64,000 nucleotides of DNA from Pocillopora damicornis (Eukaryota). Below the pieces are notes generated by a model that was not told where the DNA came from, searched no databases, and saw only the letters and a list, made by a program, of their open reading frames with translations. The translations under genes and the position numbers were made by a program. This document shows positions 3,721 to 64,000 of this stretch, one piece after another (positions within the stretch are counted from its first letter, which is position 1; the number at the start of each line of letters is the position of its first letter). The stretch lies in contig NW_020846339.1 in the NCBI RefSeq assembly GCF_003704095.1, positions 1-64,000 on the forward strand, given 5' to 3'.

Positions 3721-4036
3721 AAGGCAACTAAATTATATAAATACTACAATAATAAACTTTATTTTTCCTTTAAGGAAAGAGCAACCAAGGAGAAAAAAGT
3801 GACAAGCAAAATATGTTAGTATGGGCTCCTGGTCTCCACCCTTCCTCGACTGGGGAAGTAGAACTTATGAGTGACTTGTTGTCTCCTTATCACTTGGTCT
3901 CGTTATATTTAAGCTGCACTGTATTTTTTCTTTTTGACCGGGTTATATAAGTATCTTGGTCACTGTTATCTGTCGCTAGTGTATCCCGCAGAGAGAGACG
4001 TGATGGAACAACAATACCATTATCGTCGTGTGGGTG

Positions 4037-8146
<4,110 letters not shown>

Positions 8147-9125
8147 TTTCTGTTTCTGAAAAAGAAATACAATCACATGAAGGAGTAAATGATAAACATA
8201 AAATTCTCTATATATGCTCTTTCTGTGTGTCATATCTTACCAGTTACCTAATTTTGTGTAGACAGTTCTTGAAATTTACTGGGTTGAATTTAACTTCAAC
8301 AATCTCTCCAAGGAAATGGGAAATTTGGTAGTGTCTACTGTTGTGCCGACAGCAAATAACTGATTAAATCAGTCACATAACATATTCTTTTAGACATTCA
8401 GACTTTTAGCACTTTACATTATACCGAAAAGCCAACATCCCTGTGTCTGGAATGACAATACACTGATTTTTTAGGTCATTTTTACCATTATAGTCTCTTT
8501 TCAATTTTTTCTTATCTTTTGTTTCAGAAATTGTTTAGATATAGTAGAGGTTCTAATTCTCTTGTGATCTTATCGCAAAATAATGAACTGGCATTGAATT
8601 TATTAAGTCTTTATGAAATAAATATGTCATATAAAATTATATTCTGTGATTAACAAATACATTGAATAAAACTGTATTGTACTAACGTATTGTTTCTAAA
8701 ATTAAATCGAATCCATTCGAGCACATATCAAATGCCGCAATATTCCTGTGTTATAATTTCATAAATCTTGCTTCTCATCAGCACCATAAAATTAGTAACC
8801 CTGATCTCGAGTTAATCACAACCGACCAAAACAAATTGAAGCTGGTTGATGGAAAACGGTACGATCACCTTTTTATTATTCCCTTGTGCTAGATCTCAGT
8901 CTAAATATATGTTTCTGACTGAACTGCGCCGACACATTTAAAAGATAATCTACAAAGATAAAACTAAAACAGAGAAATGGAAGAGGAAGCCAAATTGAAC
9001 GCGAGCTAAACTCGTGATCAGCCACATCAAGATCAGTGAGCAGTCTTCAAGGAAACGCTATGTTCCCTACCTGTTTCCTTCTTGCGTGAACTTCTTCAAT
9101 ATACCACGATGAACACCACCGACAT

Positions 9126-17212: not shown

Positions 17213-18717
17213 TCATGCCTCCATTTCAAGTGGTTGATTTCCTTCATGCTCGTTTTCAACGGCAGGGCGTGTCTCGCCTTGAAACTAAAACAGATCAAAT
17301 TTAAAGAGTATCAGGAATCTTGCACAGCATCTAATAACTATTGTGCAGTCCACGTAACTAGGATTCCAAAGTTGATGTGCCTTTTCATTATTTTTTCAAG
17401 GCAACCATTTGCGGAAATTTAAATAATATTTTGTTCAAAGGTGAAAATTATGTACTAATTAAGAATAAACTTACAGTTGAAAGCTCCAGGTCCAACTCTC
17501 TCGCTTGAAAAATGATATCTCGGCTCTCGTTCATTAGTGTTGCCTCCACTGTCATGAAAGACGCATTACTCTTGGGCAAGGTAAAAACAAAATTCTCCCC
17601 AAGTTTCATTTCTTCGATTTTAAGTCTGTCGACCTAGAAAGAACACATCAAAGGGTTGGTCTGTAATGCAATTACCGTATTTGCGCGAAAAAGCGACCCC
17701 GCTCTAATCAGCGCCCTCTCTCCAAAAAGAGCTCACCCCCTGGGCCATGATATCAACCAGGCGCCCCTCCCCCTCCTTCCTCACTTTCTTTATTAGTGGA
17801 GATAGGGAGAAAACCAGAATCAGTAAAAACAGCGGAATCAGTGCAGGTTGATGGTTCCTAATAAGCACCCTCCTTCCAAGGGGTACCTCTCTTATATTAG
17901 CTGAAATTTTAAAAAAGTGCCCGGGCGCTTGACCGAGGAAATACTGTATTATCACAATCTTTTAGGCTTTTCAAATTTAACAGCTCTTAGTTACCCACTC
18001 TGATGATCATGAGTTATCGGAGATCACTAAGGACATTCACAAAAAAAAACAAAAAAAAAACAATGAATCTAAAACAAAATTGTACGTACAAAGCTTTTAC
18101 CTTCTTTTCAGCTTGGAAATCTCCCATGATTAATTGTGCAAGAAGCCTGGTACCCTCACTTTTCCTCCAACGAAAACTATCTGTGTATACAGACCGTACG
18201 TTGACCATACCTTGATCAAGCTGCTTCTAATTAGAAAAAAAATTCTAATTATTGCTTAGTTGATGAATGCAGTGATTAAATAAATGCTTTATTGAGATGT
18301 AACAGTTTAAGAAAGTGGAAACACCGTCTCCAATTTTCATCACAGGTGTTTAAAGGCTTGCCCCTAAGATGCACCAAAAAGAAGAAAAAATAAAGAAAAT
18401 TTCATTTCCCATGCATCTCCCAACTCTCTTCCTCTCTGCTCCCCTCCCCAACCTCTTTACATCATCCCTCCGGCGGGTCACCCTGATCATAATTATACTT
18501 ACATGCATGTCCAATAATTGTGTAAACCCACAGTCCTCACCTGTATTATATCTAACTGCCCAGAATCTTCCAAGGCTTTTGTGATAAACAAAACCAGTTG
18601 TTTAAGTGACCCTGTACCGCCATTTGTGGCTGGCCGTGCGTAGCTAAACACATGTATTTTGTAATATTCGTCTTCAGTACATGACTGCTGGGTTCGCAAA
18701 GGAATTTCATCTGACAT
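17213..18717 (-). CDS. Cassette gene B1: orphan 177 aa protein, possible stand-alone UPA-like beta-sandwich
   Basis: Exons 18717-18541, 18226-18101, 17633-17475, 17284-17213, all phase 0 and GT-AG. Protein: MSDEIPLRTQQSCTEDEYYKIHVFSYARPATNGGTGSLKQLVLFITKALEDSGQLDIIQ|KQLDQGMVNVRSVYTDSFRWRKSEGTRLLAQLIMGDFQAEKK|VDRLKIEEMKLGENFVFTLPKSNASFMTVEATLMNESRDIIFQARELDLELST|FQGETRPAVENEHEGNQPLEMEA*. Same structure in four paralogues. Probable 5'UTR exons at 20259-20057 and one ending at 20529. Confidence 0.88.
17673..17948. mobile_element. Tc1/mariner-pogo type MITE in B1 intron 2
   Basis: TA-CCGTATTT...AAATACTG-TA termini; the paralogous B2 site (about 30758-30780) is empty. Confidence 0.75.
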
Positions 18718-19920: not shown

Positions 19921-20818
19921 GCTTGCTTAGAGCAAATTTTGGCTTGAATTGACACGGTGCGTGATCAAGTCAGTGGTGGCTTTGTCGGTATGTAAATTAA
20001 GCATCTACTCGTCATCTACAACTGTTGATGATATTTTACAAAAACGTGTAAGTTACCTTTGACGTCTGATATTTAAAACACGATTCGAATTGTACTCTTA
20101 TTAGTCTGGCCAGGCAATACATAAGCGGCTCATTATCTTGATCATGGGTAAATGACTGTCCTTTTTCTGTCGCTCTGAACACACTAAACAGGTCCCACAC
20201 ATGTAATGAAAATTTGTGTTCACCCTTTCTGACGGACAGCGCTGCGTGACTGTAGCCACCTGCAAGGAATGTTGAATTCCCAAAGATTATTTCGGAGGGA
20301 ATCTCAGCAGAAAACAATCCCTCCTCGAACTGAAGCACTATCGTAGTATTTGTGTTTAATTCAACCCGCTATTGCTTCCAAGTTTTCTTGGTCTAATTTT
20401 GTAGCTTACGTAAGTTACTATGGTTTACCATTTCCGATCATAATATGCGCAAAGATCGATGGCGATGGAGTCTCTCTTAGAAGCCAAACATCGCCCGGAG
20501 GAAACAATAGATATACTCAGTTACTTACCGGAATGAACTTTTGTTAGAGATAAAGAGTGCTCCGTCCTCAGTCGCAGAGGTCTCTTCTCTTTCCACTAAT
20601 GCGTGATGTTATTTATTTATTATGTTCCGCGAGCCTTTAAAGTGATCGTCTTTGCTCTAACTCTCTAAGCAAGATGCATTAAGTTCAGCTATGTGGCTCC
20701 TTATATGGGCGAGCTCAGTTGTACCTTGTACTTTAGAGGAGTGAAATAGGCTGAACCTTGTACCTTCCATAAGCTTTTCTACACTTGTTAGACGATTTTT
20801 ACGAACAGCATCTGTACA

Positions 20819-21551: not shown

Positions 21552-24500
21552 ATGCATCCTGGTAAGTCAGAAATATGCAAATTAGGGGCAAAATCGATAC
21601 ATGAATAAATTATTTCCATGGATCGAGCGACAAACATCTTAGGTAGAAAATCTAATTTTATTATATTCCATTTATTGCAGCAAGGCATCGTTTTCTCCTT
21701 TTTTCACTGAATTTCATCGTGGTTTTTAATTAAGGTTGTATTTTCTACATAACATGTTTCTTCATTTTACAATTTAGATGACCTGCACATTTCAGACAGT
21801 TACAACACATTGAAAATATAAAAGATGTTGTGCATAAGGTTGTGAGCCATCCATACTCTCTTTCCGTAGACAATCTTTCTTGTGATATTGGTTAACGAAG
21901 TTTTTGCAAACCATGGCTATTTCATCAAATTTGATTTTTTGCAGCCTACGGATTCACACAGCAACTATGCACTTATGTCTTGCATCATACTTTTTGCATC
22001 CTCAAGACCCATAACGCGCGCGGTGTCACGTGCAGCTTCGAGACTGAAAAATCAGCTTTGTTCCCATTTTTAAGTACTCTTCTTTCCTGTCCCAATCTTC
22101 AAGAACATGTAATTCTGAATTACCTCCATAAGGACGTCAAATTTATACTAGATTAGGGCTTAATTATTTCACAATTATATTTCCATTTTATTACATGTGC
22201 ATTATTATTATTATTTTCTTTTTTTGTTTTTGTAATCAAGAGGAGAAGGAATATGTAAAGGTTATTTCGAGCCAATTGAAAAAAAAAAGAAAAAAATTGA
22301 AAATTTCCTCCAAAAGAAAAGTCAGATTTGAAGGTTGTGAAAGAAGGAACGTGTACACATTTTTTTGAGCCCACTGAGAAAAAAATTAAAAAGATAGAAA
22401 ATTCTCTCCAAAAGAAACATCAGATTTAAAGGTTGTTGAGGTTGTTGAAAGTATCAATATCATAAATCCCTTTTCATTTTTTCCTGAGTTAAATGTAACA
22501 TTAATTGTATTCATCTCCCTACAATAGGAGCAAGATTCCAAAACCGTGGCTTCCATTGTCTAGTCAGCGGTTGCTACAAAGTCCACAAAAATGGGGCCCT
22601 TCCTCCCAAGCCGACTTCGATCGAACACTGTTGTTTGATGACCGAGGGAAATTCCTGGGACATCTTAGTCAATTGCCGACCAAACAATAATCAATGCAAG
22701 AGGGAAAAAAACTGGAAAAATGTCATGGAGGTCTACCCCGATGCCAAGGTAGAGAGAAAACACAACAATATAGAGTTGACGTTGCCTGTCTTAACGGAAA
22801 ATCTTGAGGTTGCTGCTTTTGGAGTTCCCAAAAAGAGTGACCAGAAACGAATGCAAATGGCGATCTTTGGAAAAGATCCGACTCAGGGCTGCAACTGGAA
22901 GATTCGGGTTTACTTGATTGATGATTCAAAAAAGGCATTCGAGGTAAAAAAAGCATGTAACTGTAATTATAATGATAAAAGTAATTATGATTTAAGATAA
23001 CATTGAAATGAGAAGGATAACTCGTACTACAGTCAACAAGAAGGCTTAATGAAACGTAAGTCAGTTATAATCCAAGAACTCAGCAGATGAAGTAGTCAGC
23101 TTCTAAACTGATGTAAGACGGTACAAATTACCCAAGTGCCCTGCTCGAGAGCTATTTTCTTTTCTATCAACTGAAGATCACATTCTTTCTCTTAATTAAG
23201 TGTTTATTTGATGAGAGACCACCTGTGATCCCTGCAATGCTGTGGTGCAACAATATAAGGCATTGCATTATTTTCCTTTATCCATTTTTCATTAAATCAT
23301 CAACTTTTTGTTTATTTTGTTTTTTCGCTTTTTAATTTATTGCTTTCCTTTGATAACAGGTTGTTTGCGAGAAAGAAGCAGAAAAAGGAAACAGACTGCT
23401 GACAACTCTTTCAGGCCTATTTGTGTCCAACAGCAAGGAAAACATCAGAATTGAGTTTACTGATCTAGATCCAGGATGGCAAATAAAAGGTGAAAACGTG
23501 AAGGTAAATTGACATCTCTGATTGTACAGATGAATTCCCAGCTGCTCTCCGATAAGTAAAGAACTTTTCGAATAAAAGATTGTTATAGAAAGTAGGTCAT
23601 ATCGAGGAGAAAACAAACTGAGGTTTCATGTAACAGAAAACTGGTACAAAAAGCTAATCAGACAATCGTTACTGCACTCAAGGAATAACTCCAGGATTGC
23701 GTTTCTTGTGCCATGCAGATTTAGGACAACTTAATAACATTTCAATTCGAAAGCTAGAGGAATGATTTTGTCCGTTTGTATGTCTCTATTTAGATAATAT
23801 ATATAAAAGATGCGTGGAATTCGCCTGAAAACTCAGCAAATTTCCCTCTCTGTGTTTTTGAAGTAAGTCACGTTGATCGAACCAAGCAGCAGTTCTTTTG
23901 CCGAATAATAGTTTCACATGACGATGACAGCGCTAATACCGAGATGGTGGCTTTTTTCGAGCAGGTAAACCAACAGCAGATTATTAAAAAAAAATCACGA
24001 GAATAATGGCTAATGACAATTTATGACAATAATAAAGTAATAATACTTATAATAGTTATAATAAGAACGATTGCAAAATAACGAGAATTAAAATAGAAAA
24101 AGATTAAATCCTACGTGAATATTCTTGAAGAAAAAAAAAAACTTTTATTTATACTACTATGCAGCGTGTCAAATTCAACTATAACTGTTTCTTGACTAGT
24201 TCAGGCTCTAATCAGGCTCCTCCAGGTTCACAAATTGGAGTTGAAATTTGCTGTTCAAATTGAATCGAATAACCTAAAACTCTTCTTTTCTCTTAGAAAA
24301 GAGGCGTAGGGATTAAACCGCCAAGGAAACGTAAGAATGCTCCGATGAAGCCTCCACACGGTAAGTTATATTTGTTAGTCAACAGCGGGAGGAAACTGAC
24401 TGATGTTTGTAACATGTAACCTACTGTGTTATATTAATTGCATTTAATTTGCAATCCTAGACAATTTATCATATTAACTTCTTGTTGATTCCTCCTTAGC

Positions 24501-25551
24501 TGGTACTTTACCGACACCTCATTTGTTTTTATTTTTGTTGTTGTATAGTTAATCATGTATAGGTTTGTTGTTTTAAGATTTAAGGTAGTAGTGTAGCGTG
24601 ATAACTGAATGATAATAGTAGTAACAACATTAACAGTAATGATGTTATTCTTGATATATCTAATACATACACATTATGATGACGATATTTACAATCTTAA
24701 TCTCAAATGCTATGGGCTCCAAAGTTGATCAAAAGAATTTCAATTTTTCGTTTCATGACCATCCAAAAATACACAGCTGAAACACATTTTTCGCTGCTTG
24801 GGCCCCGCACTAAATCGAGGCTCCAAAGGTGAATGGTAAGAGATGAATCTTAATCACGTATCTTGTAGACTTCTTTCATTCTCTGACCGGTCTCGTTTGA
24901 TTACCGCAAACTATGTCAGTTGAGGCTCACTGATGTAACGTTACATGTTGGACTGTTTATGTGAGAATTCAGTCATTCTTTATCCATTGCGTTCTTCTAT
25001 GCTTGTTTACTATCCTAGACGATCATGATATTTGATATAGCAATATTCACATGATTGATATAGGATAGTTCCCTACGTAATATGACTCGCACATTTTTGT
25101 GTGCGCTTTTATTATAAAACAACCTTTAAAAAAAAAGATTCCCGATGCACGTTCACCAGCAGAGTCAGAAAAAATCCTCGCAAGCGTTCGGAACAGGTAC
25201 AAAAAGAAAAGTAGATATAGAGAGATCGGTAGTCATATGATAAAATGCTTATTTATTGAATTGATTCGATCGCACTGGACGAGAAAATACTTATTTGTTT
25301 CATCCCCTGAGGCAACAAGGAAAAAAACGTTACCTTGTTAAAACGGTCAGGCACAAATTGCCTTGAATTGAAGAAGTTGGCCATAGACCAAATATAGATA
25401 AGTTTTTCAGATGCCCCGTTGTGTTCGCTATGTGATGCTATCAGTTTATAGACAAGAAATAAACAAACTTTATTCCTAATAAAGGTGTGCTTTCTGCAAA
25501 CCCTAACCAAGAACTTACCTCTTTTTCACAGGATCCAGTGCCACTGACTGA
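21552..25551 (+). CDS. Cassette gene A1: partial ZU5 + UPA domain protein (UNC5/PIDD-like) lacking a death domain, about 274 aa
   Basis: Exons 21552-21561, 22528-22943, 23360-23503, 23794-23964, 24297-24360, 25532-25551 give one open frame. Motifs LVSG...P..IEHCC...WDILV...VAAFG...KRMQMAIFG...WKIRVYLIDDSKKAFEVVCEKEAEKGNRLL...W...CVFEV...FFCRIIV parallel the UNC5 ZU5-C/UPA region (KRLKLAIFAP..YSLRVYCLEDT..ALKEVLELE..GG.L). Basic tail KPPRKRKN, ends GSSATD*. Confidence 0.88.
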
Positions 25552-43263: not shown

Positions 43264-45192
43264 TCATGAGGCTACATCTTGTTCAACTGGCTCGTTGCCT
43301 CTATACTCGTGCTCTATCCCAACTCGTGTTTCACCGCCTTGAAACTGAAAAAAAGTTGATTTAAAAATAATGAGCACACTGTGTTGCTGGTAGTGCTAGT
43401 AATTACACACAGCCACAAAACTTAGTGACAAGCATCTGGTGAGCGAGTGAAATTTCTCTGCTTTACTGAGGGTAATTGAGGTGAAGCTTGAATGATATTG
43501 GAAAATTTAAGTGGTCCTTTTCCAAAAACCAAGCAACCTGAGTGATTGCAGTAAAAATCATCCAGAATCGGCTCTCAATAATGCATGTATGGTTACGTAA
43601 CATGTTGAATCTCAACTCTCCAGCCTCATTTTGCAACATTTTCTTAGAACATCTGCTACTTTCCTGATGTCTTTGTGTGATTACTCTTTGTGTTTAATTT
43701 CTCTCAAAATACTTAGCCATTAAAATTCACCACTCAGCATCTTGAGAGGTAACATTGGATTTTCTGGGTAGGCATAAACGCATAGGGGTGATTATTGAGA
43801 AATTCTTGACACAAAATCGGTTTCAATACATATAACTCACCTTAAAAAGATTCACGGTCATCTCTTCTATCTCCAAGATCATCTCTCCAACTTCATTAAG
43901 TAATTTTCCTTTCACATTCATTTTGGAGGCGTCACTGACTGGCATGGTGATGACGACATTCTCTGCCATTTTCATGTGATCGATCTTCTTTCTTTCAATC
44001 TGGAAAATAATGCAGGATTGGTTACACACTTTGTTGATCTATTACAAATTGAACTGCAACAATGGTCGTTTTCTGTTAGAAATTTAAACCAATGTCAAAT
44101 GCCTTCAAGGCGAATAGATGTGAGCAGTTTTTTATCATAGCCTGAGAGAAAGGATTTTGTAGAAGACTACTGAGATAGCCAAGGAAAAGTGTGGATAAAT
44201 CGTGATTATACAATGTCATTAAGGTTTCCGTTTTAAGATATGGCCATCAACCATTTTATCTGGTGGAACTAGATCTGAACTTTGATGGGTCAAAACCATG
44301 AATTAACCCTCAAAAAACCCAAAAATTATGATTGCGAGTCATTACCTCTCCGTCAGCGTGAAAGTCCCCCAAGAATAACTGTGCTTTAATGTTTTCCCCT
44401 TGTGTCTTCTTCCATCGGAAAATCTTTGAGTATATCTTCATTATGTTTTGATCACGTTGCTTCTCCTATGAACAGTTCATAAAAAATGGAGAGTTGATAT
44501 GCTGATGCATGCTGTAGTCGCAGGACACGAGTTTAGATCTATGGAAACTTGCTAAGGGATCCCTTTAACTACAACTTAACACTTATTTATTTCCCAAAGT
44601 TGATGGATAAGAGAGTCATTTAACTTGTTATGACAGGTTTAACTGACTGGCTGTCTTACTGGCTAATTGATTATCTATAGACATCCTGTCTGTTGACTTT
44701 CCGAATGATACAGCATAAATTTTAGCACAAGTAACTCTGGAACGAGTGAAAAAAAACCAGTGTGCTGGATGTGAAAATGATAGATTTAAGGGGGAAGTAG
44801 TCGGGCTAGTCTATTCCAGGCTGTACTCGATCTTATTAAACCAATATAGAACTGACTGACCAACTAACTTGTAGAATGACTGATTGACTGACTAACTGAC
44901 TTGCTGACTGACTAACAGACTGGCCAACTTCCAAAATGGCCGACTAAGTGGCTGACTGGTTAGTGAAACGATAGATTGTCTGATACGCTGACTGTGCTGA
45001 AGTACCCGCACTTACTCGAAGAATATCTAGGCGGCCAGAATTCTCCAAGGCCTTTGTGACGTACATGACCAATTGATGCAGTGATCCTGTTTCGCCATTT
45101 GTCGCCGATCGCACATAACTGAAAACATCTATCATGTAGTAATCGTCATCGACGCAAGACTCTTGATCGCGCAGTGGAACGTTATCGGACAT
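43264..45192 (-). CDS. Cassette gene B3 (178 aa)
   Basis: Exons 45192-45016, 44465-44346, 43999-43841, 43344-43264. Protein: MSDNVPLRDQESCVDDDYYMIDVFSYVRSATNGETGSLHQLVMYVTKALENSGRLDILR|EKQRDQNIMKIYSKIFRWKKTQGENIKAQLFLGDFHADGE|IERKKIDHMKMAENVVITMPVSDASKMNVKGKLLNEVGEMILEIEEMTVNLFK|FQGGETRVGIEHEYRGNEPVEQDVAS*. Confidence 0.88.
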
Positions 45193-45977
45193 TGTAATTC
45201 TGTGCACAGCTTTTTGACGTTACTTCTATAGTGTATAAACTGTAGCCTTAAAAAAGGGAAAAAAAGAAGGCATAAAAACAAAAAAGGTTATAGAATATAT
45301 TTGGAAAAAGGAGTAGGGCACATATATCAAGTCTGCGTTTTCGTGTTGCACAGAAGTTGTCAAAAATTACTGGTATTGCAAAAAATATCATCGATACCTA
45401 AAATTGCCGAGCTCTTTGACAGAGTCCAGCAGCAAGAATATCGTGTAGCTTAAATCTGGTTCTCGAATTTTCTTTGAGAGGATTCCCACAGCTGAATGAC
45501 TATGGAATTTCTCGTCCTTATAGTATTGTATATGTCGAATTTAAATTCCGAAATGAACATTCATACTACATAAGATAGTCGAAACTCTATTCTCTGTGGT
45601 GATTCAAACGTGCTCTAGACAATAATTTACATATATTTTCGGAGAGGCCACGTGCGTGTGAGTGTTTGTAAATATTGCCTTTTTGCACGAATAGAGTGGT
45701 TACTTTTGTATATATTCCAATAGTCAAAACGAAATCCCGTCTGTTGTTTTCAATCTAGTGCAAAACTTACTATCATTGCGGGTAAATACTGATAATAGGC
45801 GTCTTGCCACTCCAGCATTGGAGGTGCACTCTACTCTGCAGGCTAGATACTCTCTGATCAGGAGGGTAAGGAATCAATCTTTCTCCTAATGGTCAAGAAA
45901 TGCAGTGGACCCCTGCTAAAAATGTTGTCACGGTAACCTTTTAATATGTTTACAACATTCGAAAGCACTTGACGTTA

Positions 45978-47288
45978 GGGGGTTTCCCCGAAAAAAAAAA
46001 GATTGCACCGTAAGTACTTTCGATTACGTGTGTAAATGGACACAAAAAGATATTGTCTCGTTCACTATTCACCACGATGAGTCATAACTGATATTTCTAT
46101 CATAACAACTTATCAAATAGAATCAGATGGATGAAAATTAATGCTTATGGTGATTCTTACCCCTAGTCTTTCCGAAACCAAGATAGTGTATATGCGTTCG
46201 ATTCCTTCCTGAAGAATCTTTGTATTTGTCTTTGATTCACAACCGATAATCCGATCCTGTCACAGTTTTTTCTTCGAAGAACCTCAATATTAAATGACTG
46301 TTCAAAAACCTTGCTCCCCTATTCACGCTGAAAAAAGCTGCTAAGCACTCGTTCACTTGTTTTATGAAACAAAAGCGAGCGAAATGCCTAATGGCGGCGA
46401 CTGACAAACGTTGCATTGATTAATTTATTCTATTTCCTAGGGCAGGGGGTTTCCCCGCTGCACTTTTGATTTTAAAAAACTTTCACTTCAAAATTCAACA
46501 CTTTTTTGGGGGACCTTTCATCGCTAATCAGAGAAAATTATTTGCTCACACTAGGAGTTGAGAATGTTTTCCCTGTTTTCTTTTTAAATGTATTCGATAA
46601 CCCAGAGACTTCGGCTTCGGCGAAATAGCTTATCTTGGAAGACATATTTGAAAAGTACGCTGTAAACGTTTCTCGATATATACCCGATAGACTTGGCGCC
46701 ATCGATATTGAAAACGTTTCCCTAAGCATTTCTGGAATTTTTTTTTATCAGAGTTCATGGTTTGGATGATTTCTTTAGTGATAAAAATGTGCTTTATTGC
46801 ATTTTTTGTTTGCGTGGGAAAAACCCCGGATTTTTGTTCTTGTTTTCGATTTATTTATTATTTTATTTATGAAGACCTGTTTCAAATCATGTCCTTCACT
46901 TTGGTGCTTTCGACAGATTCGATAAAATCGAAGCACAACTTGGAAAAAGATAGTCAGTTTGAGAAACTAAAAGCTTATAAGAACCTCAGGTATATATTTT
47001 GGTTATTTTTAACCTCCGCAGACGGCGACTGCATGACGGTTAGTGACCTGCTTGTATTATCTTTCATTGGTGGTCTCTGTTTTCATTTGTTATGGAAACT
47101 TTTGCCTCTGTTTTTCAAACTTAATGCACCTTCAGAGCTCAAATGGACATAGAAGACTACTTCGATTAGTAATCTTAGCAACATTTAATGTCCATCTGTT
47201 TTTGTTTTCATCTCTAGTTTAGCTGAAATATGCTTTTTCCTCAAATGTTGCGTTAATTAGGGAAAAACCCCTTTTCGCTTTCATTTCC
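45978..47288. promoter_or_regulatory. B3/A3 bidirectional promoter with four NF-kB-like sites and an ISRE-like site
   Basis: GGGGGTTTCCCC at 45978-45989 and 46445-46456; GGGAAAAACCCC at 46816-46827 and 47260-47271. The last is followed directly by TTTTCGCTTTCATTTCC (reverse complement GGAAATGAAAGCGAAAA, matching GAAANNGAAA). Confidence 0.72.
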
Positions 47289-47434: not shown

Positions 47435-50414
47435 ATGTGTCCAGGTAAGACGATGCACATAATTACAATCGACCGAAGCATAAATCTAAAAACATCGCCT
47501 CGCACAAAAATTAACTTAGAAGTTAGACTGTACCTTGCAAATAACAAAAATGCTGCATATATCAAAAATCACCGGTGTATCACCCGAAATTCAAAATTAG
47601 TAGACATTTTTGTCTTCGATAACCTCATCGCGGCTGCGCTTATTTGCTATTTGCTAACATATTGAAAATATGTTGAAAAGAAAGATCGAGCTATTTCCAA
47701 TTTATCTGTAGCTCTAAACACATGATATGATTTTAACCTTTGTGAGTAAATTTTTTCAGCAGATATTTGCAGCGAACACTTCCGATCCTTTGTTTTTGTT
47801 TACTTGTTTTTCCTCTGACGCGGCGCAGGGTGTTTTATAGTTGTTTTGTTCGTTCGTTCCTTTGTTTGTTTGTTTTCTTTTTTTTTTTCATGTAGAATAC
47901 TGAAGGAGCTCAATTTACTTTGGTTCATTAGTATGAGTGACACTTCTGTCAATGGGGTATCATTTTGTGTCATGACTGATCTAAAGCACGTTCGTTCACG
48001 GACTCATCATCATTCTCATTAAAGCCTCAACCATCACCATCTTCATCGTTATCATTATCATCATCACTGTCACCACCGTTATCATTATCACATCCATCAT
48101 CACTATCATCGTCACTGTCATCATAGTCATCATTATCATCAAACAAACAATCTATATATAAATCAATCCATCTAATCAACCAACGATCTATCAATCTTTG
48201 ATACATTCAACTCTTTACTTGTTCATCTGGCTATTTTAAAGTCAGTTCATCATTCATCTCCTTACCTTTTTCTTTAGTGTTGTTTTCTTGTTTTTTGGAC
48301 TGATGTTATCTCTTTATCTTTAACAGCAGTGATGGTCAGTGGCCGTTACGTAATAGTTCAGAATGGGTGCATTCCTCCGCAGCCCATTTTGATGGAACAC
48401 TGCTGTTTGATGGTAGGGGGGAACGACTGGGATATTCATGTGAAATGCCGGCCACATTTCAATCAACGTAAGAAAAGTAAAAAGTGGCGAAATATTAAAG
48501 AAGTGTATCCTGATGCTAAGGTGGAGACAAAACATAACGATATCCGGCTGACGTTGCCAGTGCTAAGACAAAGTCTCGAAGTGGCAGCCTTTGGAATTCC
48601 AGGAAAAGATGACCAGAAGCGAATGCAAATGGCGATCTTTGGGAAGGAGCCAACCAAAGCCTGTAACTGGGATATCCGAGTTTATCTGATAGATGATTCC
48701 GAAATGGCGTTCAAGGTAACACATTTACCCCTGATCTGTATTCTACCAATTTGTTTTTGCATAGGATTAAAGTTAAGTCAAAAAAAGGAAGAAAAAAGAA
48801 GACAAACTAAAGATATTGCCTGAATGATCTTTCTGAAAAATTTCATCCTCTTCTTGAATCATTCTTTTGAATTTTTTACAGCATTTCTCTCTTAATTTAG
48901 TTTGTTCTTTGCTCAAATAAGTTAGTTTAATTTTTTTAGTACGTTTGTTTGACTTGTTTGTTTGACTTGTTTGTTTGTTTACGTTGTCTGTTGAGTCTGT
49001 TCACCTTTTCCCTTTTATTCAATTTACAGCAGATTTGCAAGAAAGTAGAAAATGAAGAAATGAAATTTTTGACAACACTGTCCAGCTTGTTTGTATCCAA
49101 CAGTGAGAAAGATATCAGCATAGAGGTTACTGCCGTGGCTTCAGGGTGGCACATCATAGGGGACTATAAGAAAGTAAGTTACTCTATAGAGGGCGGGTGT
49201 GTTGTTGGATAGTATGACTTTCAAAGATAACTGACACTAGAAATAAGAGTTATTTTTATGGTAAAACACGCACTTCAGCAGCAGATAGTGCCTACCAACG
49301 CATTAATTTTAGGACGCTGATTCCAAGATTCTGAACTTTCATATAATTCTCTAGGGGATAGCTTCAAGAAGTGCCTGGAATTCCCAAGAAAATACCACAG
49401 ATTTTCCCCGTTGTGATTTTTGTGTGAGTCACGATGATATAAAAGAACGGCAGTTCTTCTGTAAAATGAGAGCAACACACGAAAACGACAGTGCTGGCAA
49501 CGAGATTGTGGCCTTTTTCCAACAGGTAAATAAACTCATCATAATCTTTACTTTATTCATGTTGTATCTTCACGGTTATCGTAATGCTATCGACTTTACG
49601 AAGCAATTTACAAAGGAGAAGCCAAAGTATAAATTACTGGCTAGATAACGACAGTAGAAAAGAATTAAGAAATTGCTAGAACATCGATCTCAAAAAGTGA
49701 GATTAAGTTATTTCCTAGTTTACTTGCAAGTGAAAACAACTCGTTTGGAAGAACGGTGGTTCAAAAACAAAACAAAAACGAAGACAAAACAAGGGAAAAA
49801 AATAATAAAAAAACAGAGGCAGAAAAACTGATAAGGAATAAGTTTTGCAACAGCAACTGTCGGCTAATATAAAAGCTAATATTAAATAAGCGATTTATCA
49901 AATCTCCCTACTTCATTCTACAGAAAAGTGATGCCAAGATCAACAACCCAACTGAAAAGAAGTTCAAGAACACGCCGAAGATGAACTGTTCAAAAGGTTA
50001 GACATATTTAGTCTCTTTTTATGATTGGACAAAATTGTATCATTATGCTTTCCAGGTCAAATTTACCTGCAGGTCCCCCAATCATATTTAGTCAATGTCT
50101 TTTAGTTATCCTTAGGGTTAAGGAGAGGAAGGGGATTTATTCAGATTGAATAGCCTCGCCATACTTTATGAGAGCCGAGCCTACATTGTGATTATAGGAT
50201 GCATAGTGATGAATACTAGAAGATTTCTGCTGTTTAATAGGTAGGGGTTGTTTGGCTAAAAATCTATCAGCAGCTTCGTTAGTTAGAAGTGAAAATTATC
50301 AAACTGATAAACCTTTTGCTGAGGAATTTCCCATTTAATAATCGATGCATTCATTCATTAATTTATTCGTCCATTTATTTATTTATATCATCAGAATTTA
50401 ATGCTACTGGATGA
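47435..50414 (+). CDS. Cassette gene A3: partial ZU5 + UPA protein, about 268 aa
   Basis: Exons 47435-47444, 48327-48715, 49030-49173, 49355-49525, 49924-49996, 50395-50414. Protein: MCPAVMVSGRYVIVQNG...EHCC...KRMQMAIFGKEPTKACNWDIRVYLIDDSEMAFKQICKKVENEEMKFL...EFNATG*. Same intron positions and phases as A1/A2. Confidence 0.88.
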
Positions 50415-51161
50415 AGTCTCTGGAACGGATTGTCATTTTACAGCTTCCTACCAAGCCTCGCAGCTTTGTATTAACATTATGATTTCCACCGTCTAGACAC
50501 GCTCTCGAATCTCTAGAGATAACAAAAAAGGCATCCAATTAAATGGCAAAAAGGACGGATCTAAACTGCTTTGAATTTATCTTTGCCAAGTTGGAAAAAT
50601 AGCTAAAAAAAACTTAGATATGGAATGCACGAGGCAAATTAAAACGCAGTGGTTAATTTTCTTTTTCTGCCAATTTTAGGGACCAAGCCTAATACCTCAT
50701 TTAAATCTCTCAGAATCTTACAGGCAGTCAATTAAAAGCCAAAGATTTCCAGCCGTCGAAAGTTTTCTTGTTTGACTTTTGTTTGACAACTCTCTTCTAT
50801 GTTTTTCTTCCTTTTTCTTTTTTGTTTCTTTGTTTTTTTGTTATTATAATAATTTTTTTCAATTTACCGCCTTATTTTATCTATACAAATTATATACAGT
50901 GAACCCCGTTAACTCGAATTGCCAAGGGAAACTGAAATTACTTCAAAAATAAAATTCTGGATAATGAAAAAGTCCCTAAAAGTTTTTGCCTTTCACCCTT
51001 TCGAAAGTTACAGTTATCAGGAAAACTTAGTAAAGCTGAAATGTATAATGTGTGAATTCTGAAATAATAAAGGCGTTCTGCAAAAGGTCTTAGAAATGAT
51101 GGTTTTAAATAATAAAAATAACGATGATAGTAATAATAGTAATGATAATGATGATGATAGT

Positions 51162-52660
51162 ACACACGGATGTCTGATTTTCTACACTGGTGCCCCATTA
51201 GACACCAGGGTCTGATTGTAGACACTATCGTCCGATTTTATACACTACTGTCTGATTTTATACACAAGTGTCCGACTTTGTAAACTAATTTCCAATTCTA
51301 TTCGCTAGAGTCTGATTTTATATACAAGTATCCGATTTTATATACTAGAGTCCGATTTTATACACTAGTGTCCGATTCTAATCACTAGTGTCTGATTTTA
51401 TACAAGTGTCCGATTTTATGTATTAGTGTCTGATTTTATATACTAGAGTCTGATTTGTTATACTAGTGTCCGATTTTATTCAATTGTTCAATTTAATATA
51501 CTAGTGTACAATTTTATATACTACCGTCCGATTTTATACACAAGTGTCCGATTCTATTCACGAGTGTCTGATTTTATACAAGTGTCCGATTTTATGTATT
51601 AGTGCCTGATTTTATATAATAGTGTCTGATTTGTTATACTAGTGTCCGATTTTATTCAAGTGTTCAATTTCATATACTAGTGTACGATTTTATATACTAG
51701 TGTCCGATTTTATACACAAGTGCATGATTTTATACACCAATGTCTGATTGTTTACACAAGTGTCCGATTTTAGATACTAGTGTCTGATTTTATGCACTAG
51801 TGTTCGACCTTATCCACTAGTTTCTGATTTTATACACAAGTGTCTGATTCTATATGCTAGAGTCCCATTTATATACTAGTGTTTGATTTTATACACTAGT
51901 ATCCGATTCTATCCACCAGAGTCTAAATTTATACACAAGTGCCCGATTTTATATACTAGTGTCTGATTTGATACAAAAGTGTCCGATTTTAGATACTAGT
52001 GTCTGATTTTGTACACTAGTGTCTGATTTTATACACTAATGTCTGATTTTGTATAGTAGTGCCCGATTTTATATACTAGTGTCTGATTTTATACACAAGT
52101 GTCTGATTTTACACACCAATGTCTGATCTTATAGACAAGTGTCTGATATTATACTCAAGTGTCTGATTCTATCCACTAGTGTCTGATTTTATACACCAGT
52201 GTCCGATTTTTTATACTAGTGTCTGATTTTATACGTTATTGTCCGATTTTATGTGCTTGTGTCTGATTTTATACGCCAGTGTCGGTTTTTATCGACTTAT
52301 GTCTTATTTTATAAACTACTGTCCGATTTTCTATGCTAGTGTCTCCTTTTATATATAATAAAATTCGTCAGTATCCGATTATATACAGTAATGTTCAATT
52401 TTTTACACTAGCGTCCGATTTTATATACTAGTTTCCGATTTCATACACTAGTGTCTAATTTTATACGCTAGGGTCTGATTTTATTTACTAGTGTCCGATT
52501 CAAGTTAGTAGGGTCCGACTAGTACTGTAGACACCAATATAATGTCCGATTATAGACCCTTGAGTCCGATTTGTGACACTGAAGTCCGATTTTGGAGACT
52601 AGCGTCCGATTTTAGACTCTAGTTTCCGATTGCAGACACTTGTGCAGACCTTTGATACTA
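51162..52660. repeat. 20-bp minisatellite (about 70-75 copies)
   Basis: GTGTCYGATTTTATACACTA units over about 1.5 kb. Confidence 0.95.
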
Positions 52661-54475
52661 GTTTCCTTATTTAGAGAGTTGTATCTTTCAGCTATTTTCC
52701 TTTGTAGAATGCCTTACTTTTGAAACGTCTGCTTTTCATTTTTGTTCCCAGTGGCTTTTTTTTTTCATTTTAACTCAGATGATAAAGGGAATTTATTCTT
52801 TAATACCCACACTGACGCAGCACTACTATTTCTTTAGAAACTCCCCCCCCCCCCCCCNNNNNNNNNNNNNNNNNNNNNNNNNNNNNNNNNNNNNNNNNNN
52901 NNNNNNNNNNNNNNNNNNNNNNNNNNNNNNNNNNNNNNNNNNNNNNNNNNNNNNNNNNNNNNNNNNNNNNNNNNNNNNNNNNNNNNNNNNNNNNNNNNNN
53001 NNNNNNNNNNNNNNNNNNNNNNNNNNNNNNNNNNNNNNNNNNNNNNNNNNNNNNNNNNNNNNNNNNNNNNNNNNNNNNNNNNNNNNNNNNNNNNNNNNNN
53101 NNNNNNNNNNNNNNNNNNNNNNNNNNNNNNNNNNNNNNNNNNNNNNNNNNNNNNNNNNNNNNNNNNNNNNNNNNNNNNNNNNNNNNNNNNNNNNNNNNNN
53201 NNNNNNNNNNNNNNNNNNNNNNNNNNNNNNNNNNNNNNNNNNNNNNNNNNNNNNNNATATGGCAAAACAGGACTTGCTGAATAACATTCACAACAAGTCA
53301 CCGTATTCATGATTCAGCTAGTAAGTAGGACTTTTTTCCTAGTCTCATTTCTAACTTCGCATTTATTATTTAACTTCTACCTCGCGAGTTAAGTCCCTTT
53401 TCGTCGTGAACACTTTACACGAAAGATATAAGAAAGATCAAAGATCGAAAATTACTATCTCCTTTTTGAGAATTACTAAAATTAGGCGCGGCGGTTGTTT
53501 AAAAGGCGAAAAACCCAAAAAGGGGAATCATGCCATCAGAAGCTAAGTTCAAGCGTTTTAAATGTAAAAAAAATGAATATTCATAACATAAGCATTTTAT
53601 ATATGCATGGATACTGAACTGATATTGATAACTTAAAGTTAAAAAGAAATTACTTGTAGAACAGATTTGTAAATTTTTTAGCCTTAACCTATGCGATGCA
53701 CCCATTCTCAACTAACACGGTCCATTGAGGGATTTTCTCATGCTAGTACTGATTCACATTTCCAACAAAACGATCTATCGCACTTAATAACTCAGAAATT
53801 TGTCTATTCCAAAGTAGATCATAGTTTTCTCTCAGGAATTCGAGTAACNNNNNNNNNNNNNNNNNNNNNNNNNNNNNNNNNNNNNNNNNNNNNNNNNNNN
53901 NNNNNNNNNNNNNNNNNNNNNNNNNNNNNNNNNNNNNNNNNNNNNNNNNNNNNNNNNNNNNNNNNNNNNNNNNNNNNNNNNNNNNNNNNNNNNNNNNNNN
54001 NNNTCTTTTTTCTGTTCATTATAATTCTGCTCCTACCGTGCTGCTTCGTGGCTTATTTGTTAGAAGGACACAACAGGTATCTGAGAGCGTACAAGCACAG
54101 CTCAAGCCGAATTTCTTACAGGTGCCTTCATCGTATGTGGCATCAAACTCAGTTTACCAGCGACAACAAATGCGTCATCATCCACTAGTTAAAATATATT
54201 TCAAATCCATTTGTGATCAATTTCAATCGCACAGGGCAACATAACCAACTCATGCCGTAGCACGTTTATTTCCCTCGGACAAAATGTTTAAAGGTTTCTT
54301 TTTTTTAATGCTCTTGCTTTGCGAAACATTATTGGGAGGTTCAAGCACTTTCTTTGCTTAGCATTCATCTCAAAGTACATATTTGACCCTTTGGAAATGG
54401 CAGGCAAAAGCTTTCATCTAGTCAGCCAAATTTACCAAATTGAAACGGAAGATATTCTTATAAAAGTTTTTCGCC

Positions 54476-55674: not shown

Positions 55675-57628
55675 TCATGTGGCTACATCTTGTTCAACTG
55701 CCTCATTGCCACTATACTCGTGCTCTATCCCAGCTCGTGTTTCACCGTCTTGAAACTGAAACAAAGTTGGTATTAAAATAATGAGCACACTGTGTTGCTG
55801 GTAGAGCTAGAAATTACACACTGCCACAAAACCTAAGCATCTGGTGAAAAAGTGAAATTTCCCTGCTCTACTAAAAGTAAATGAAATGGAAGCTTGAACC
55901 ATCTTGGAAAATTTAAGTGGTTCTTGTCTAAAATCATACAATCATACCTTTAGTGAATGCAATAAAAATCATCTAGAATCATTCCTTAATAAAGCAAGAC
56001 TACGTAGCTTGTTGAATCTCAACCCCTTAGCCACATTTCACAACATTTTCCTGGAACATCTGCTACTTTCTTGATGTCTTCGTGTGATTATTCTTTGTTT
56101 AATTTCTCTGGAAATACTCGGCCTTTAAATTTTCACCATGAAGAGTCTTGAGGGGCAACACTGGATTTTCTGGGCTGGTAGATACGCACAGGGGTTATCA
56201 TTTGAGAAATGCTTCGAACAAAATCAGTTTCATTACTAGTAAATCACCTTGATAAGGTTTACGTTCATTGCTCCTATCTTCAAGATCATCTCTCCATCTT
56301 CATTCAATAAGTTTCCTTCCACGGTCATTTTGGAGGCGTCACTGACTGGCAAGGTGAAGACGACATTCTCTGCCAGTTTCATATGGTCGACCTTCTTTCT
56401 TTCAATCTGGAGAATAATAAATGATCAGTTACGCACTTTGTTGATCTATTACAAATTGACCCGCAGCAATGATCGTTTTCTGAAAGAAATCTGAACCAAC
56501 GTAAATGCCTCCAAGGCCAATAGATGAGCAGTTTTTTTATCATAGCCCGAGAGAAAGGACTTTGAAGAAGGCTACTGAGATAGCAAAGGATAAATTGTGA
56601 TTAGACATTGTCATTAAGGTTTCCATTTAAAGATATGGCCATCAACCAATTTATCTAGAGGAACAAGATCTTAACTTAGCAATGAAATAAATTAACCCTG
56701 AAAAAAAGTTAAAAAAATATATAATTGGGAGTCATTACCTTTTTGTCAGCGTGAAAGCCCCCCAAGAGCAATTGTGCTATAATGTTTTCCCCTTGTGTCT
56801 TCTTCCATCGGAAACTGTTTGAGTATATCTTCATTATGTTTTGGTCACGTTGCTTCTCCTATGAACAGTTCATAATAAATGGAGAGTTGATATGCTGATG
56901 CATGTTGTAGTCGCAGGGTATGAGCTTCGATTCATGGAAACTTGCTTAGGGATCGCTTTAACTGCAGCTTAAGACTAATTTATTTCCTAAAAATGATCGA
57001 TCAAAGAGTTATCTACCTAGAGTAATAACAGGTTTAACTGAATGGCTGATTGATTATTTATAGATGTTCTGTCTGTTGACTTTCCGAGTGATATAGCATA
57101 AATTTGAGCACAGCAGGTACCTTTTCTAGCGAGCAAATGTCAAATATTCTGAAAGACTGTTGAATCCGCCATATTGGATTGGCAAGATCGAAGTAAGCTT
57201 GGAACGAGTGAAAAGAAAACGAGAGAGGTGGCTGTGAAAATGATAGATTTTATGGGGGAAGTAGTCGGGTAAGTCTGTTCCAGGCTGTACTTAATCTTAT
57301 CAAACCAACATAGAACTGACTGACTTACCAATTTGTAGAATGACTGATTGACTGACTAACTGACTAACTGACTTGCTGACTGACTAACGGACTGGCTAAC
57401 TACCAAAATGGCCGACTAAGTGGCTGACTGTGCTAAAGTACCCGCACTTACTCGTAGAATATCAAGGCGGCCAGAGTCCTCCAAGGCCCTGGTGACGTAC
57501 ATGACCAGTTGGTGCAGTGATCCTGTTTCGCCATTTGTCGCCGGTCGTGCATAAGTGAAAACATCGATCATGTAATAATCGTCTTTGACGCAAGACTCTT
57601 GATCACGCAGGAAAACGTTATCAGACAT
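55675..57628 (-). CDS. Cassette gene B4 (178 aa)
   Basis: Exons 57628-57452, 56858-56739, 56406-56248, 55755-55675; frame intact; ends EQDVAT*. The original acceptor upstream of the ATG exon is deleted relative to B3. Confidence 0.82.
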
Positions 57629-59719: not shown

Positions 59720-61878
59720 ATGCCTCCAGGTAAGACGATGCACATATTATCAACCGAGGCATAAATCTAGAGACACTGACACAAAAATTAGACTGTACCT
59801 TGCAAATGGCATAAAATGCTACATATATCTACAGTCAACGATGTATCGCCCGAAATTGAAAATATATAGATATGGAGTTATCTCCAATATATCTGTTGCT
59901 CTAAACACATGAAATAATTTTAACCTTTATGCGGAATTTTTTTTTAGTTCAGCAGAACTTTGTAGCGAACACTTCCGATCCTTTGTTTTTGTTTATTTGT
60001 ACTTCCTCTGACGCAGTCCAGGGTGTTTTTTCTGTTGTTGTTTTTTTTCTTAATCGTTATCATTATCACTGCCATCATTACCATCATCGTCACTGTCATC
60101 ATCGTTATCATTATCATCAAGTAAACAATCTATCAATTCATTATCTATCTATCACATCATCTATCGATCTATCAATCTACTTACACATTCACCTCTTTAC
60201 TTATTCATCTGGCCATTTTAAATTTAGTTAATTATTCATCTCCTTACCTTTTTCTTTAGCGTCGTTTTAGTTGTTTTTTGGACTGATATTATCTCTTTAT
60301 CTTTAACAGCAGTGATGGTAAGTGGCCGTTACGTAATAGCTCAAAATGGGCGCATTCCTCCACAGCCCATTTTGATGGAACACTGCTGTTTTATGGTAGG
60401 GGGGAACGACTGGGATATTTCTGTTAAATGCCGGCCACATTTCAATCAAAGTAAGAAAAGTAAAAAGTGGCGAAATATTAAAGAAGTGTATCCTGATGCC
60501 AAGGTGGAGACAAAACATAACGACATCCGGCTGACGTTGCCAGTGCTAGGACAAAGTCTCGAAGTGGCAGCCTTTGGAGTTCCAGGAAAAGATGACCAGA
60601 AGCGAATGCAAATGGTGATCTTTGGGAAGGAGCCAGCCAAAGCCTGTGACTGGGATATCAGAGTTTATCTGATAGATGATTCCGAAATGGCGTTCAAGGT
60701 AACACATTTACTCCTGATCTGCGTTCTACCAATTTTTATTTTTTTATTTTTTTAATAGGATTAAAGGTTAAGTCAAAAAAAGGAAGAAAAAACAAGAGAA
60801 GCTAAAGAAGAAAAGAAAGATTATTGCCTCAATGATCCTTCTGAAATATTTCACCCTCTTCTTGAATCATTCTTCTGAATTTTTTCCAGCATTTTTCTCC
60901 TAATTTAGCTTGCTCTTTGCTCGAATAAGTTGTTTTAATTTTTTTGTACGTGTTTGTTTGACNNNNNNNNNNNNNNNNNNNNNNNNNNNNNNNNNNNNNN
61001 NNNNNNNNNNNNNNNNNNNNNNNNNNNNNNNNNNNNNNNNNNNNNNNNNNNNNNNNNNNNNNAGTGAGATTAAGTTATCTACTAGTTTACTTGCAAATGA
61101 AACCAACTCGTTTGGAAGAACGGTGGTTCAAAAACAAAACAAAAACAAAACAAATAAAAAATTAATTTAGAATAAAAGGGGGAGAAAAACTGATAAGGAA
61201 TAAGTTTTACAACAACAAATGTCAGCTAGCACAATAGTTAATATTAGGATAGGCGATTTATCAGATCTCCTTACTTCATTCTACAGAAAAGTGATGCTAA
61301 GATCAACAACCCAACTGAAAAGAAGTTCAAGAACACTCTGAAGATGAACTGTTCGAAAGGTTAGACATATTTGTGCTTTTTTATGATTGTACAAAACTGT
61401 ATCAGTATGCTTTCCAGGTCAAATTTACCTATAGGTCCCCCAATCATATTTACTCAATGTCTTTTAGTTATCCTTAGGGTTAAGGAATGAAAGGAGATTT
61501 ATTCAAATTGAATAGCTCTCGCCAAACTTTATGAGAGCCGAGCCTACATTGAAAGTATAGGATGTGTAAAGATGAACACTAAAAAATATTTCTGCCGTTT
61601 AACAGACAGGTTGTTTGGTTAAAAATCCCTCAGCAGTTGACTAATGAGATGAAATGAACATCATTTCGTTTTTTTTTTCTAAAGACAACAGGCGGGCTGT
61701 CCCAAGATAGGCTGCCCTAATTCAAGCAGCTTCGTTAGTCAGAAGTGAAAATTATGAAGCTGAAAAACCTTTTGGTGGGGAATTTTCGATTAAATAATCG
61801 ATGCATTCATTCATTCAGTCATTCATTTATTTGTCCATTCATTCATTTTTATCATCAGAATCCAATGCTACTGGATGA
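59720..61878 (+). CDS. Cassette gene A4: partial ZU5 + UPA protein (exons 3-4 fall in an assembly gap)
   Basis: Visible exons 59720-59729, 60310-60698, 61287-61359, 61859-61878 (ESNATG*). The N-gap 60963-61062 replaces about 740 bp that hold exons 3-4 in A3. Confidence 0.78.
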
Positions 61879-62926: not shown

Positions 62927-64000
62927 TTAATTTTTATTCCAACCAATTTTTATTTTTCTATCTTTGACTCAGTACATGTTTTCGAAAGGTGGCGAGGCAA
63001 GAAGATGTGGACTCGCTGTCGTGACGTGAGCAATTTCTGAATGAAGACTTTAAAAATAATCGTGAACTTTTCACATGAAACCATTCGACCCATTGCCTCA
63101 GGGTATCTGTACATTCAACTTAACCCCTCTCCCTCACCCCTCCTTCCCCCTGTAAGTAATGAATGAAACTTGAGCTCGGGAGAGTATAGATAAACAGTAT
63201 ACGTAACACGTTATGAACTGATACTGTATTTCATTCAAATCAATCCGATATTTACATGTTTACAGGGCAGATAAGCGTAGTTCGGACGATTAAGGCGCCT
63301 TCTGCCGTCTTAGTCGTCAACATACGGCTCCACACTTGCGCCAACCACGGTACATCACGGTCTCACGACCATGGACAGGCTCAGTCCGGACCGCCACCTC
63401 AGGCGACCAATGTAGTGCGTTTAATCGCAGCAACTCGCGCCGTCTCGAACTAAACGTTACGCGCCTCTCCGCCACTCCAATAGAACTTCTGTCCCTCCCT
63501 TTACTCAGGATTGTTGCCATGCTCCACCGCTGGTTTCGTCTCAATCAAATGAGTCTACAGAGGAAATATTTTTTTCACAAATTTAAATTTTTTTGTCAAT
63601 GAGAAACCTAATCTTCTTAAGATGGCAAGATATGAGAAAGATAACGGAGAAGGTAAGTTATGATACCAACGTTAAACTGCAGCTTCTTTATACATCACTA
63701 TCCTTTGAATGATCAGCCATGCGGGCATTGTTTCTTTTTAGCTCATTTCCCAGCAAAGTATGTTTGCAATTTTTGTTGCTGTTTGAACAATTTTTGGGCT
63801 CGGCGCTTTTCATTGAATTTTAGCGATAAATTTGTCGCGGGAAGTTTTTCCTGCCGAATTACCACTTATTCATTGCGGGTCAATTTTGTTATTCTAAATA
63901 GATAAAACTATGTCACCAAAAGATGTTATAATTATAATTTAATTCAGAGCTTGATTCTTCATAGATTAATTACGCACGTTATCATTTCATTATTGTTTTT

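Follow-up and report, generated by a model that had tools for sequence, protein, structure and literature searches.

Stony corals encode a conserved family of small proteins, here called B, which very probably consists of a stand-alone UPA-like domain with a predicted descent from an UNC5-type ZU5-UPA gene. This reading of B, already put forward in a first-pass annotation as a stand-alone, highly diverged UPA-like domain, held up because the matches of its structural model at Z of at least 8 are all UPA domains and because its introns are in register with those of the neighbouring gene, A. The analysed window, 64,000 nucleotides of a Pocillopora damicornis contig (NW_020846339.1), contains four head-to-head units, in each of which B is encoded on the minus and A on the plus strand, with start codons 2.1-3.2 kb apart (Table 1).

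Table 1. Features of the B/A array (window positions unless marked as contig positions).
Feature	Position	Strand	Description
B3 gene	45192-43264	-	Four coding exons, 178 aa; phase-0 GT-AG introns throughout
B3 exon 1	45016..45192	-	59 codons; conserved N-terminal tail, predicted UPA strands 1-2, first half of helix; RNA joint 44464/45015 in 4/4 runs
B3 exon 2	44346..44465	-	40 codons, phase 0; RNA joints in 4/4 runs
B3 exon 3	43841..43999	-	53 codons, phase 0; ends just past last predicted strand
B3 exon 4	43264..43344	-	26 codons plus stop; acidic tail, predicted disordered; RNA joint 43344/43841 in 4/4 runs
B3 alternative 5' untranslated exons	45771..46811	-	RNA joints 45245/45770 and 45245/46160; outer end approximate
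B3/A3 contig junction	46780..47434	.	Transcript contigs abut; presumed shared divergent promoter
A3	47435..50414	+	268 aa; ZU5 second half and UNC5-type UPA, without death domain; identical to P0175
A3 exons	47435-47444, 48327-48715, 49030-49173, 49355-49525, 49924-49996, 50395-50414	+	From RNA joints
B1	17213..18717	-	177 aa; exons of 59/42/53/23 codons; 52% identical to B3
A1	21552..24834	+	Mini first exon at 21552; UPA exons of 48 and 57 codons; 3' end approximate
B2	30284..31541	-	177 aa; one intron in 3/3 RNA runs
A2	34751..38571	+	3' end approximate
B4	55675..57628	-	178 aa; 82% identical to B3
A4	59720..61358	+	Two UPA exons not visible at N stretch 60963-61062
B5 last exon	63504..63554	-	Remaining exons beyond window end, contig 64019-68268
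A5	contig 72540 onward		Partner of B5, beyond window end

B is a real, spliced and expressed gene. All three B3 introns were spliced in four of four RNA runs, taken from four studies, and the three introns of B1 in three of three; the RNA data for B and A consist of contigs, which carry no levels, starts or strand. Two alternative untranslated exons extend B3 towards 46.4-46.8 kb, an in-frame stop lies 10 codons upstream of its ATG, and its stop codon lies 26 codons past the domain. An open frame at 20036-20368 was considered as a lost coding exon of B1 and rejected, as it is part of the spliced B1 leader, in which a stop in frame precedes the ATG by 28 codons. B1, B3, B4 and A3 are exact database proteins, labelled in the sources as uncharacterised proteins of P. 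damicornis.

The B family is under purifying selection, with dN/dS of 0.08-0.44 in all six paralogue pairs (rough in the four pairs with dS >2). Its tails are conserved though predicted to be disordered, with M1, S2, D3, L7, Q10, C13, E157, T158 and E163 conserved in 79-93% of 29 rows (S2 in 90%). Six B proteins have no hydrophobic segment (Kyte-Doolittle maximum over 19 residues, 0.57-0.75), neither A nor B proteins carry a membrane segment or an effector domain, and no ZU5, death domain or CARD was found within the B family.

A template-free model of B was built from a 29-sequence alignment. Its mean pLDDT was 74.8, with 76-94 over residues 41-150 and less than 50 in the tails; two of the five runs gave a mean near 62. 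In the model two strands lead into a helix, and three strands, a short helix and a final set of three strands follow, the same order as in the UPA of A. The best five of 48,161 chains compared with VIA-align were all UPA, and the next row had Z 7.5-7.6. B matched UNC5B (Z 11.1, rmsd 2.7, 127 residues aligned), ankyrin-B (Z 10.2-10.9; best rmsd 3.0, 118 aligned), CARD8 (Z 10.2, rmsd 3.6, 126 aligned), rat NLRP1 (Z 10.1, rmsd 4.1, 125 aligned) and human NLRP1 (Z 9.2, rmsd 4.2, 121 aligned). In a second structure comparison all seven chains with Z of at least 8 were UPA domains, and Foldseek also placed UNC5B first (E 1.4e-3, which misses 0.001). The first-pass annotation had looked to UNC5B, NLRP1 and CARD8 for such matches; all three were among the best. 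As the UPA matches of B lie within one Z unit of each other, the subfamily cannot be read from structure.

Sequence searches returned no counterpart to these matches. Pfam UPA, UPA_2 and FIIND did not match any of 29 B proteins at E up to 10, no Pfam family matched B as exons or whole proteins, and a PDB sequence search was likewise empty. HHalign of B against A, which the first-pass annotation had proposed as a check, gave no signal, with a probability of 0.06% for whole proteins and 0.11% after trimming to UPA; B against UPA groups gave 0.06-1.6%, mostly no better than reversed controls. Against 300 shuffles, the HMM score reached significance for none of the 16 UPA sequences (best 5/300), in a test whose means and z values are distorted by setting sequences without a reported match to -20. 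That residue identity between A and B is negligible had been noted correctly: the global score of the A3 UPA against B3 was beaten by 886 of 1000 shuffles. The 12 motifs quoted at that stage all occur at their places, 11 exactly, with WDIRVYLID and others found in A3 just as written.

The introns provide evidence of another kind. In both genes, as had been observed, a phase-0 intron interrupts the helix and two further phase-0 exons follow, of 40-42 and 53 codons in B and 48 and 57 codons in A. Mapped on the model elements, the first intron falls mid-helix in both genes; the second and third are 3 residues ahead of the short helix and 3 past the last strand in B, and 4 ahead and 4 past in A. 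The three positions agree within 1-3 residues, for which the chance is near 1 in 50,000 by a rough estimate, made less strict by the third intron lying at the domain end. This register independently supports homology, and it is not specific to A. Because a Pfam UPA search of the genome matched only one exon, genome relatives were sought by ZU5. Of 15 other ZU5 loci, 6 have the three introns of B and A, again all phase 0 and bounding exons of 48-51 and 54-60 codons, as predicted from splice signals. These six are an UNC5-like gene, a ZO-1-like gene, two TNFR-like genes and two related genes; three have a death-domain exon and two lie beside TNFR cysteine-rich exons. The helix intron is absent from another six loci (ankyrin, a PIDD-like gene, three single-exon genes and one other), and three were left unclassed (a minus-strand copy on C2431, C1529 and C4198). 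Since the three phase-0 introns are common to UNC5-type loci, B is assigned to the UNC5-type branch, and its three introns are predicted to record descent from an UNC5-type ZU5-UPA gene. The middle UPA exon may correspond to exon 14 of NLRP1. That NLRP1 exon is given as 44 aa in the available excerpt of a review (PMC7370280).

Some ZU5 loci of this genome combine domains in ways worth recording. The ZO-1-like gene (PDZ, SH3, ZU5; G000:C1307:330500-360499) has three UPA-like exons beyond ZU5, the domain with which vertebrate ZO-1 terminates. On the same strand, at the 5' end of the gene, there is an open frame for a CARD (Pfam E 6.5e-13), a putative linkage. At G000:C4113:1-4600 and C2431:150600-154500, TNFR cysteine-rich exons are followed by ZU5 and UPA-like exons, in C4113 also with a death domain, so that both are TNFR-like receptors with an UNC5-type tail. 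A paper on TNFR origins shows no 'ZU5' among the matches listed (PMC4979521). On G000:C3382 and C2336, three genes have ZU5 and a UPA-like region in one exon, next a death-like exon and then a long unannotated C-terminal exon; a DBB gene is found 20 kb from the C3382 pair.

Gene A was matched by Pfam UPA in four of four cases (E 4e-9 to 3e-14; A3, 4.2e-9). The A3 model superposes on UNC5B 595-828 with Z 17.1, as against 10.6-11.7 for FIIND, making A UNC5-type and not FIIND-type. Pfam ZU5 and Death had no match in A. Its large exon begins in phase 1, at about the phase-1 intron of the ZO-1-like gene (Pfam ZU5 position 49), and A has therefore likely lost the first ZU5 exon. The autoproteolysis motif (S/H)-F-S (HFS/SFS) at the end of ZU5 is absent from all 18 A rows. 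The A copies have dN/dS of 0.13-0.46 in three of three pairs. The two nearest genomic relatives of A include the PDZ-SH3-ZU5 gene like ZO-1, and a UPA tree from which B was excluded picked out no single nearest relative. Of the four A copies counted in the window, only three are complete; A4 is without two exons at a stretch of 100 N. In Oculina, A (P0074 / P0186) is annotated with two tandem near-identical half-ZU5-UPA units in 584-587 aa, which are either a true internal duplication or two genes joined together.

The B/A unit has been duplicated as a block, giving five units. The B copies are 49-82% identical, and the trees of A and B are congruent, ((1,2),(3,4)),5, with A4 and A5 placed from one exon only; it is this congruence that indicates block duplication. 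In the third unit 2243 bp separate the two ATGs. No other copies of A or B were found in the genome by candidate-limited searches. In the B5 region (G000:C2974:63504-68268), exon 1 and exon 2 each occur in two versions, with a single visible exon 3 and last exon; the doubling reflects either alternative pairs of first exons or a partial duplication. A short A-like ZU5 remnant at G000:C2974:78333-78572 and about 80800, in duplicated sequence downstream of A5, is probably a pseudogene fragment. The array is flanked by spermidine synthase exons on the minus strand (Pfam PF17284, E 3.8e-13; window 4000-8240), and minisatellite-like tandem repeats lie within or after A genes (window 35190-36239, 40733-41147 and 51154-52666).

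Judged from their sequences, A and B appear to be cousins within the UNC5-type UPA family, and a closer sisterhood is not readable at that level. The earlier claim that they are ancient paralogues is thus sustained in its broad sense, both coming from UNC5-type UPA genes, and not as sisters made by local inverted duplication. In the sister scenario, a truncated ZU5-UPA gene would have been duplicated once, locally and in inverted orientation, to give both, after which B would have lost its ZU5 remnant and diverged fast. The head-to-head layout, the three identical introns, the lack of a death domain in either gene and the presence of A and B at this locus only in this genome are all consistent with it, as is parsimony, the death domain being lost once rather than twice. 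However, the same three introns occur in six unlinked genes, and no profile test places B nearer to A than to these genes, no comparison with any UPA group being significant. The B profile aligns out of register with A alone and in register with other UNC5-type genes, at equally insignificant scores. Moreover, Pfam UPA matches A and not B, so that B as a sister needs a much faster rate. We regard sisterhood as rather doubtful, though with a real chance of being right.

B is conserved across stony corals. It had been called an orphan; it is taxonomically restricted, but named relatives come from six stony-coral genera (Pocillopora, Oculina, Desmophyllum, Orbicella, Porites and Montipora), which span both main stony-coral clades. 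Profile searches gave 71 and 69 matches, many of them single-exon fragments, and taxonomy was looked up for 18 of the 69 representative matches. The 29 aligned rows have 144-206 aa and identity down to 27%. Among 1.8 billion representatives, 68 of the 69 B matches have at most 205 aa and the remaining one is a 935-aa repeat. A single 563-aa prediction from P. meandrina (P0015) joins ankyrin repeats to the B domain, probably through a read-through mis-join since its linker equals the untranslated-leader sequence of other rows. A and B have adjacent accessions in Oculina (LOC144658427/428), Desmophyllum (KAJ7382369/70) and Pocillopora meandrina (CAH3135202-04), a neighbourhood that is weak evidence for a common pathway; a word-limited search did not find A in Porites or Montipora.

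CARD-only and PYD-only proteins (COPs and POPs) are decoys. Like B, they are small single-domain products of tandemly clustered genes that arose from signalling genes. Their fold differs from that of B, and by this analogy a decoy role of B is putative. The genome encodes several ZU5-UPA-death-domain receptors, and B is a lone UPA placed head-to-head with a second cut-down gene of like kind, from which we tentatively propose, at somewhat less than even confidence, that B together with A tunes these receptors as a death-domain-less adaptor or decoy. Both proteins would be cytosolic and non-catalytic, would be co-transcribed from the shared divergent promoter, and would act by occupying UPA-binding surfaces, as COPs and POPs do for their folds; taken jointly, and by analogy, these steps seem possible without being probable. 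In the available excerpts, UPA is described as a docking module in UNC5B, PIDD1 and NLRP1 (PMC5123080, PMC9162469, 10.1101/2020.08.14.246132), and UPA and death domain are described as folding back on ZU5, which keeps the death domain inactive (PMC9162469). One of these sources, as excerpted, presents the UNC5B UPA as an exposed docking site and calls its signalling unresolved (PMC5123080).

A more specific role would be a dedicated A-B heteromer, in which ZU5-bearing A would cap the free UPA of B much as full-length NLRP1 caps its freed C-terminal fragment. The head-to-head unit has been retained through four duplications and is adjacent in two other coral families, and about the first half of ZU5 is absent from A in all relatives seen, with the remainder under selection. 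The B tails, conserved despite their predicted disorder, also fit, and in a variant of this reading one of them would provide the strands missing from the half ZU5 of A. According to the excerpted preprint, ZU5-bound UPA of NLRP1 does bind and cap free UPA, but through a contact unseen in other ZU5-UPA structures (10.1101/2020.08.14.246132), and A is UNC5-type and not FIIND-type by its Z values. UPA oligomers are also described, in an excerpt, as reducing the threshold for CARD filaments (10.1101/2020.06.27.175497); neither A nor B has a CARD or death domain, and the pair thus lacks the NLRP1 output. When A3 (1-242) and B3 were modelled as a complex, two runs scored 0.00, with alignments not used and the fold of B itself uncertain, so that the score speaks neither for nor against binding. 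We consider the heteromer unlikely, and its variant no less so.

Similarly unlikely is a role of B as an independent scaffold with no connection to death receptors, such as cytoskeletal or junctional docking like ankyrin or ZO-1, in which case B would be linked to A by shared regulation only. By structure the UNC5B, ankyrin and FIIND matches of B are inseparable (Z within 1), the ZO-1-like gene is among the two nearest genomic relatives of A, and the UNC5B UPA alone is described in the available excerpt as signalling to VEGFR2 without the death domain (PMC5123080). Against these points, tandem expansion and divergence to ~50% identity would fit an immune or conflict role better, and most intron-sharing relatives have death domains or TNFR repeats.

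ESM Atlas features of B4 gave unrelated prokaryotic rows. Those of a Porites relative (P0148) scored 0.89 with a chordate cluster of 159 aa, unnamed but labelled ARHGEF28, and 0.75-0.80 with RHD_dimer and TIG clusters. The P0148 matches could point to an immunoglobulin-like sandwich of IPT/TIG or DBB type that merely resembles UPA, a reading that is highly improbable. Every ESM Atlas match was below the tool's lead level of 0.9, and UPA structures aligned at Z 9.2-11.1 over 118-127 residues, well clear of the rows that came next. B also agrees with UPA genes in the helix that follows strand 2 and in the positions of its three introns. Pfam DBB and RHD_dimer match elsewhere in the genome and not at the B locus, and the loci that they match do not score against the B profile. 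Pfam TIG, RHD_dimer and DBB had no match in B proteins, and no IPT/TIG or DBB domain was among the best 50 rows of either VIA-align list, which is not an exclusion.

Several known systems come close to B and A. UNC5B, with the ZU5-UPA-DD module of the netrin receptors (PDB 3g5b; Pfam UPA PF17217), is the best structural match of both proteins, and the three introns of B are the same as in the coral UNC5-like gene on G000:C1098. However, B has no ZU5, death domain, membrane segment, ectodomain or PF17217 score, and in A the ZU5 is reduced to its second half and the death domain is absent. Like the C-terminal fragment of NLRP1/CARD8 (UPA-CARD), B is a free UPA with a short N-terminal tail, which starts with Ser after the initiator Met, and matches that fragment at structural Z 9.2-10.2. 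In contrast, B is free from its own gene and not by autoproteolysis, has no CARD, and has a Ser-Asp tail, whereas the NLRP1 fragment tail is Ser-Pro; A differs from NLRP1/CARD8 in lacking the cleavage motif. Ankyrins (ZU5-ZU5-UPA-DD; UPA_2 PF17809) also match B in structure, but in the coral ankyrin gene the UPA helix is not interrupted by an intron, and B has no ankyrin repeats, save in the probable join P0015. B is predicted to work like a UPA domain, yet, being without ZU5, cleavage motif and effector, it falls outside the UNC5, FIIND, PIDD and ankyrin families.

In the excerpts of the literature available, UPA is described only within ZU5-UPA modules or as a cut UPA-CARD fragment (PMC5123080, PMC9162469, 10.1101/2020.08.14.246132), and FIIND is said to have been recognised as ZU5-UPA by remote modelling only (PMC3210808). 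Two surveys report ZU5 in cnidarian and invertebrate immune proteins, and their excerpts mention no free UPA (PMC8260672, PMC8195603). Among the matches listed there was no literature on a UPA-only protein or this coral locus; coral annotation tables in supplements could bear on novelty.

A bolder reading, which we rate as quite unlikely, is that the two divergent genes of stony corals make up a 'pre-cleaved' UPA switch, whose cognate pair would gate TNFR-like and UNC5-like ZU5-UPA-death-domain receptors. B would then be a genetically encoded counterpart of the C-terminal fragment freed from NLRP1/CARD8, minus the CARD, and would be bound by the half-ZU5-UPA protein A, its conserved tail perhaps completing the ZU5 of A. 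If true, no earlier class of UPA-only decoys would precede it, and UPA-UPA pairing would occur outside vertebrate inflammasomes. More generally, a predicted fold is now assigned to a coral family that is uncharacterised in every source, and a conserved UPA-only family offers a natural test object for UPA binding partners and for whether UPA self-association is ancient or a novelty of vertebrate inflammasomes. Together, B and A suggest that reef builders have a layer of cell-death or immune regulation that annotation has missed.
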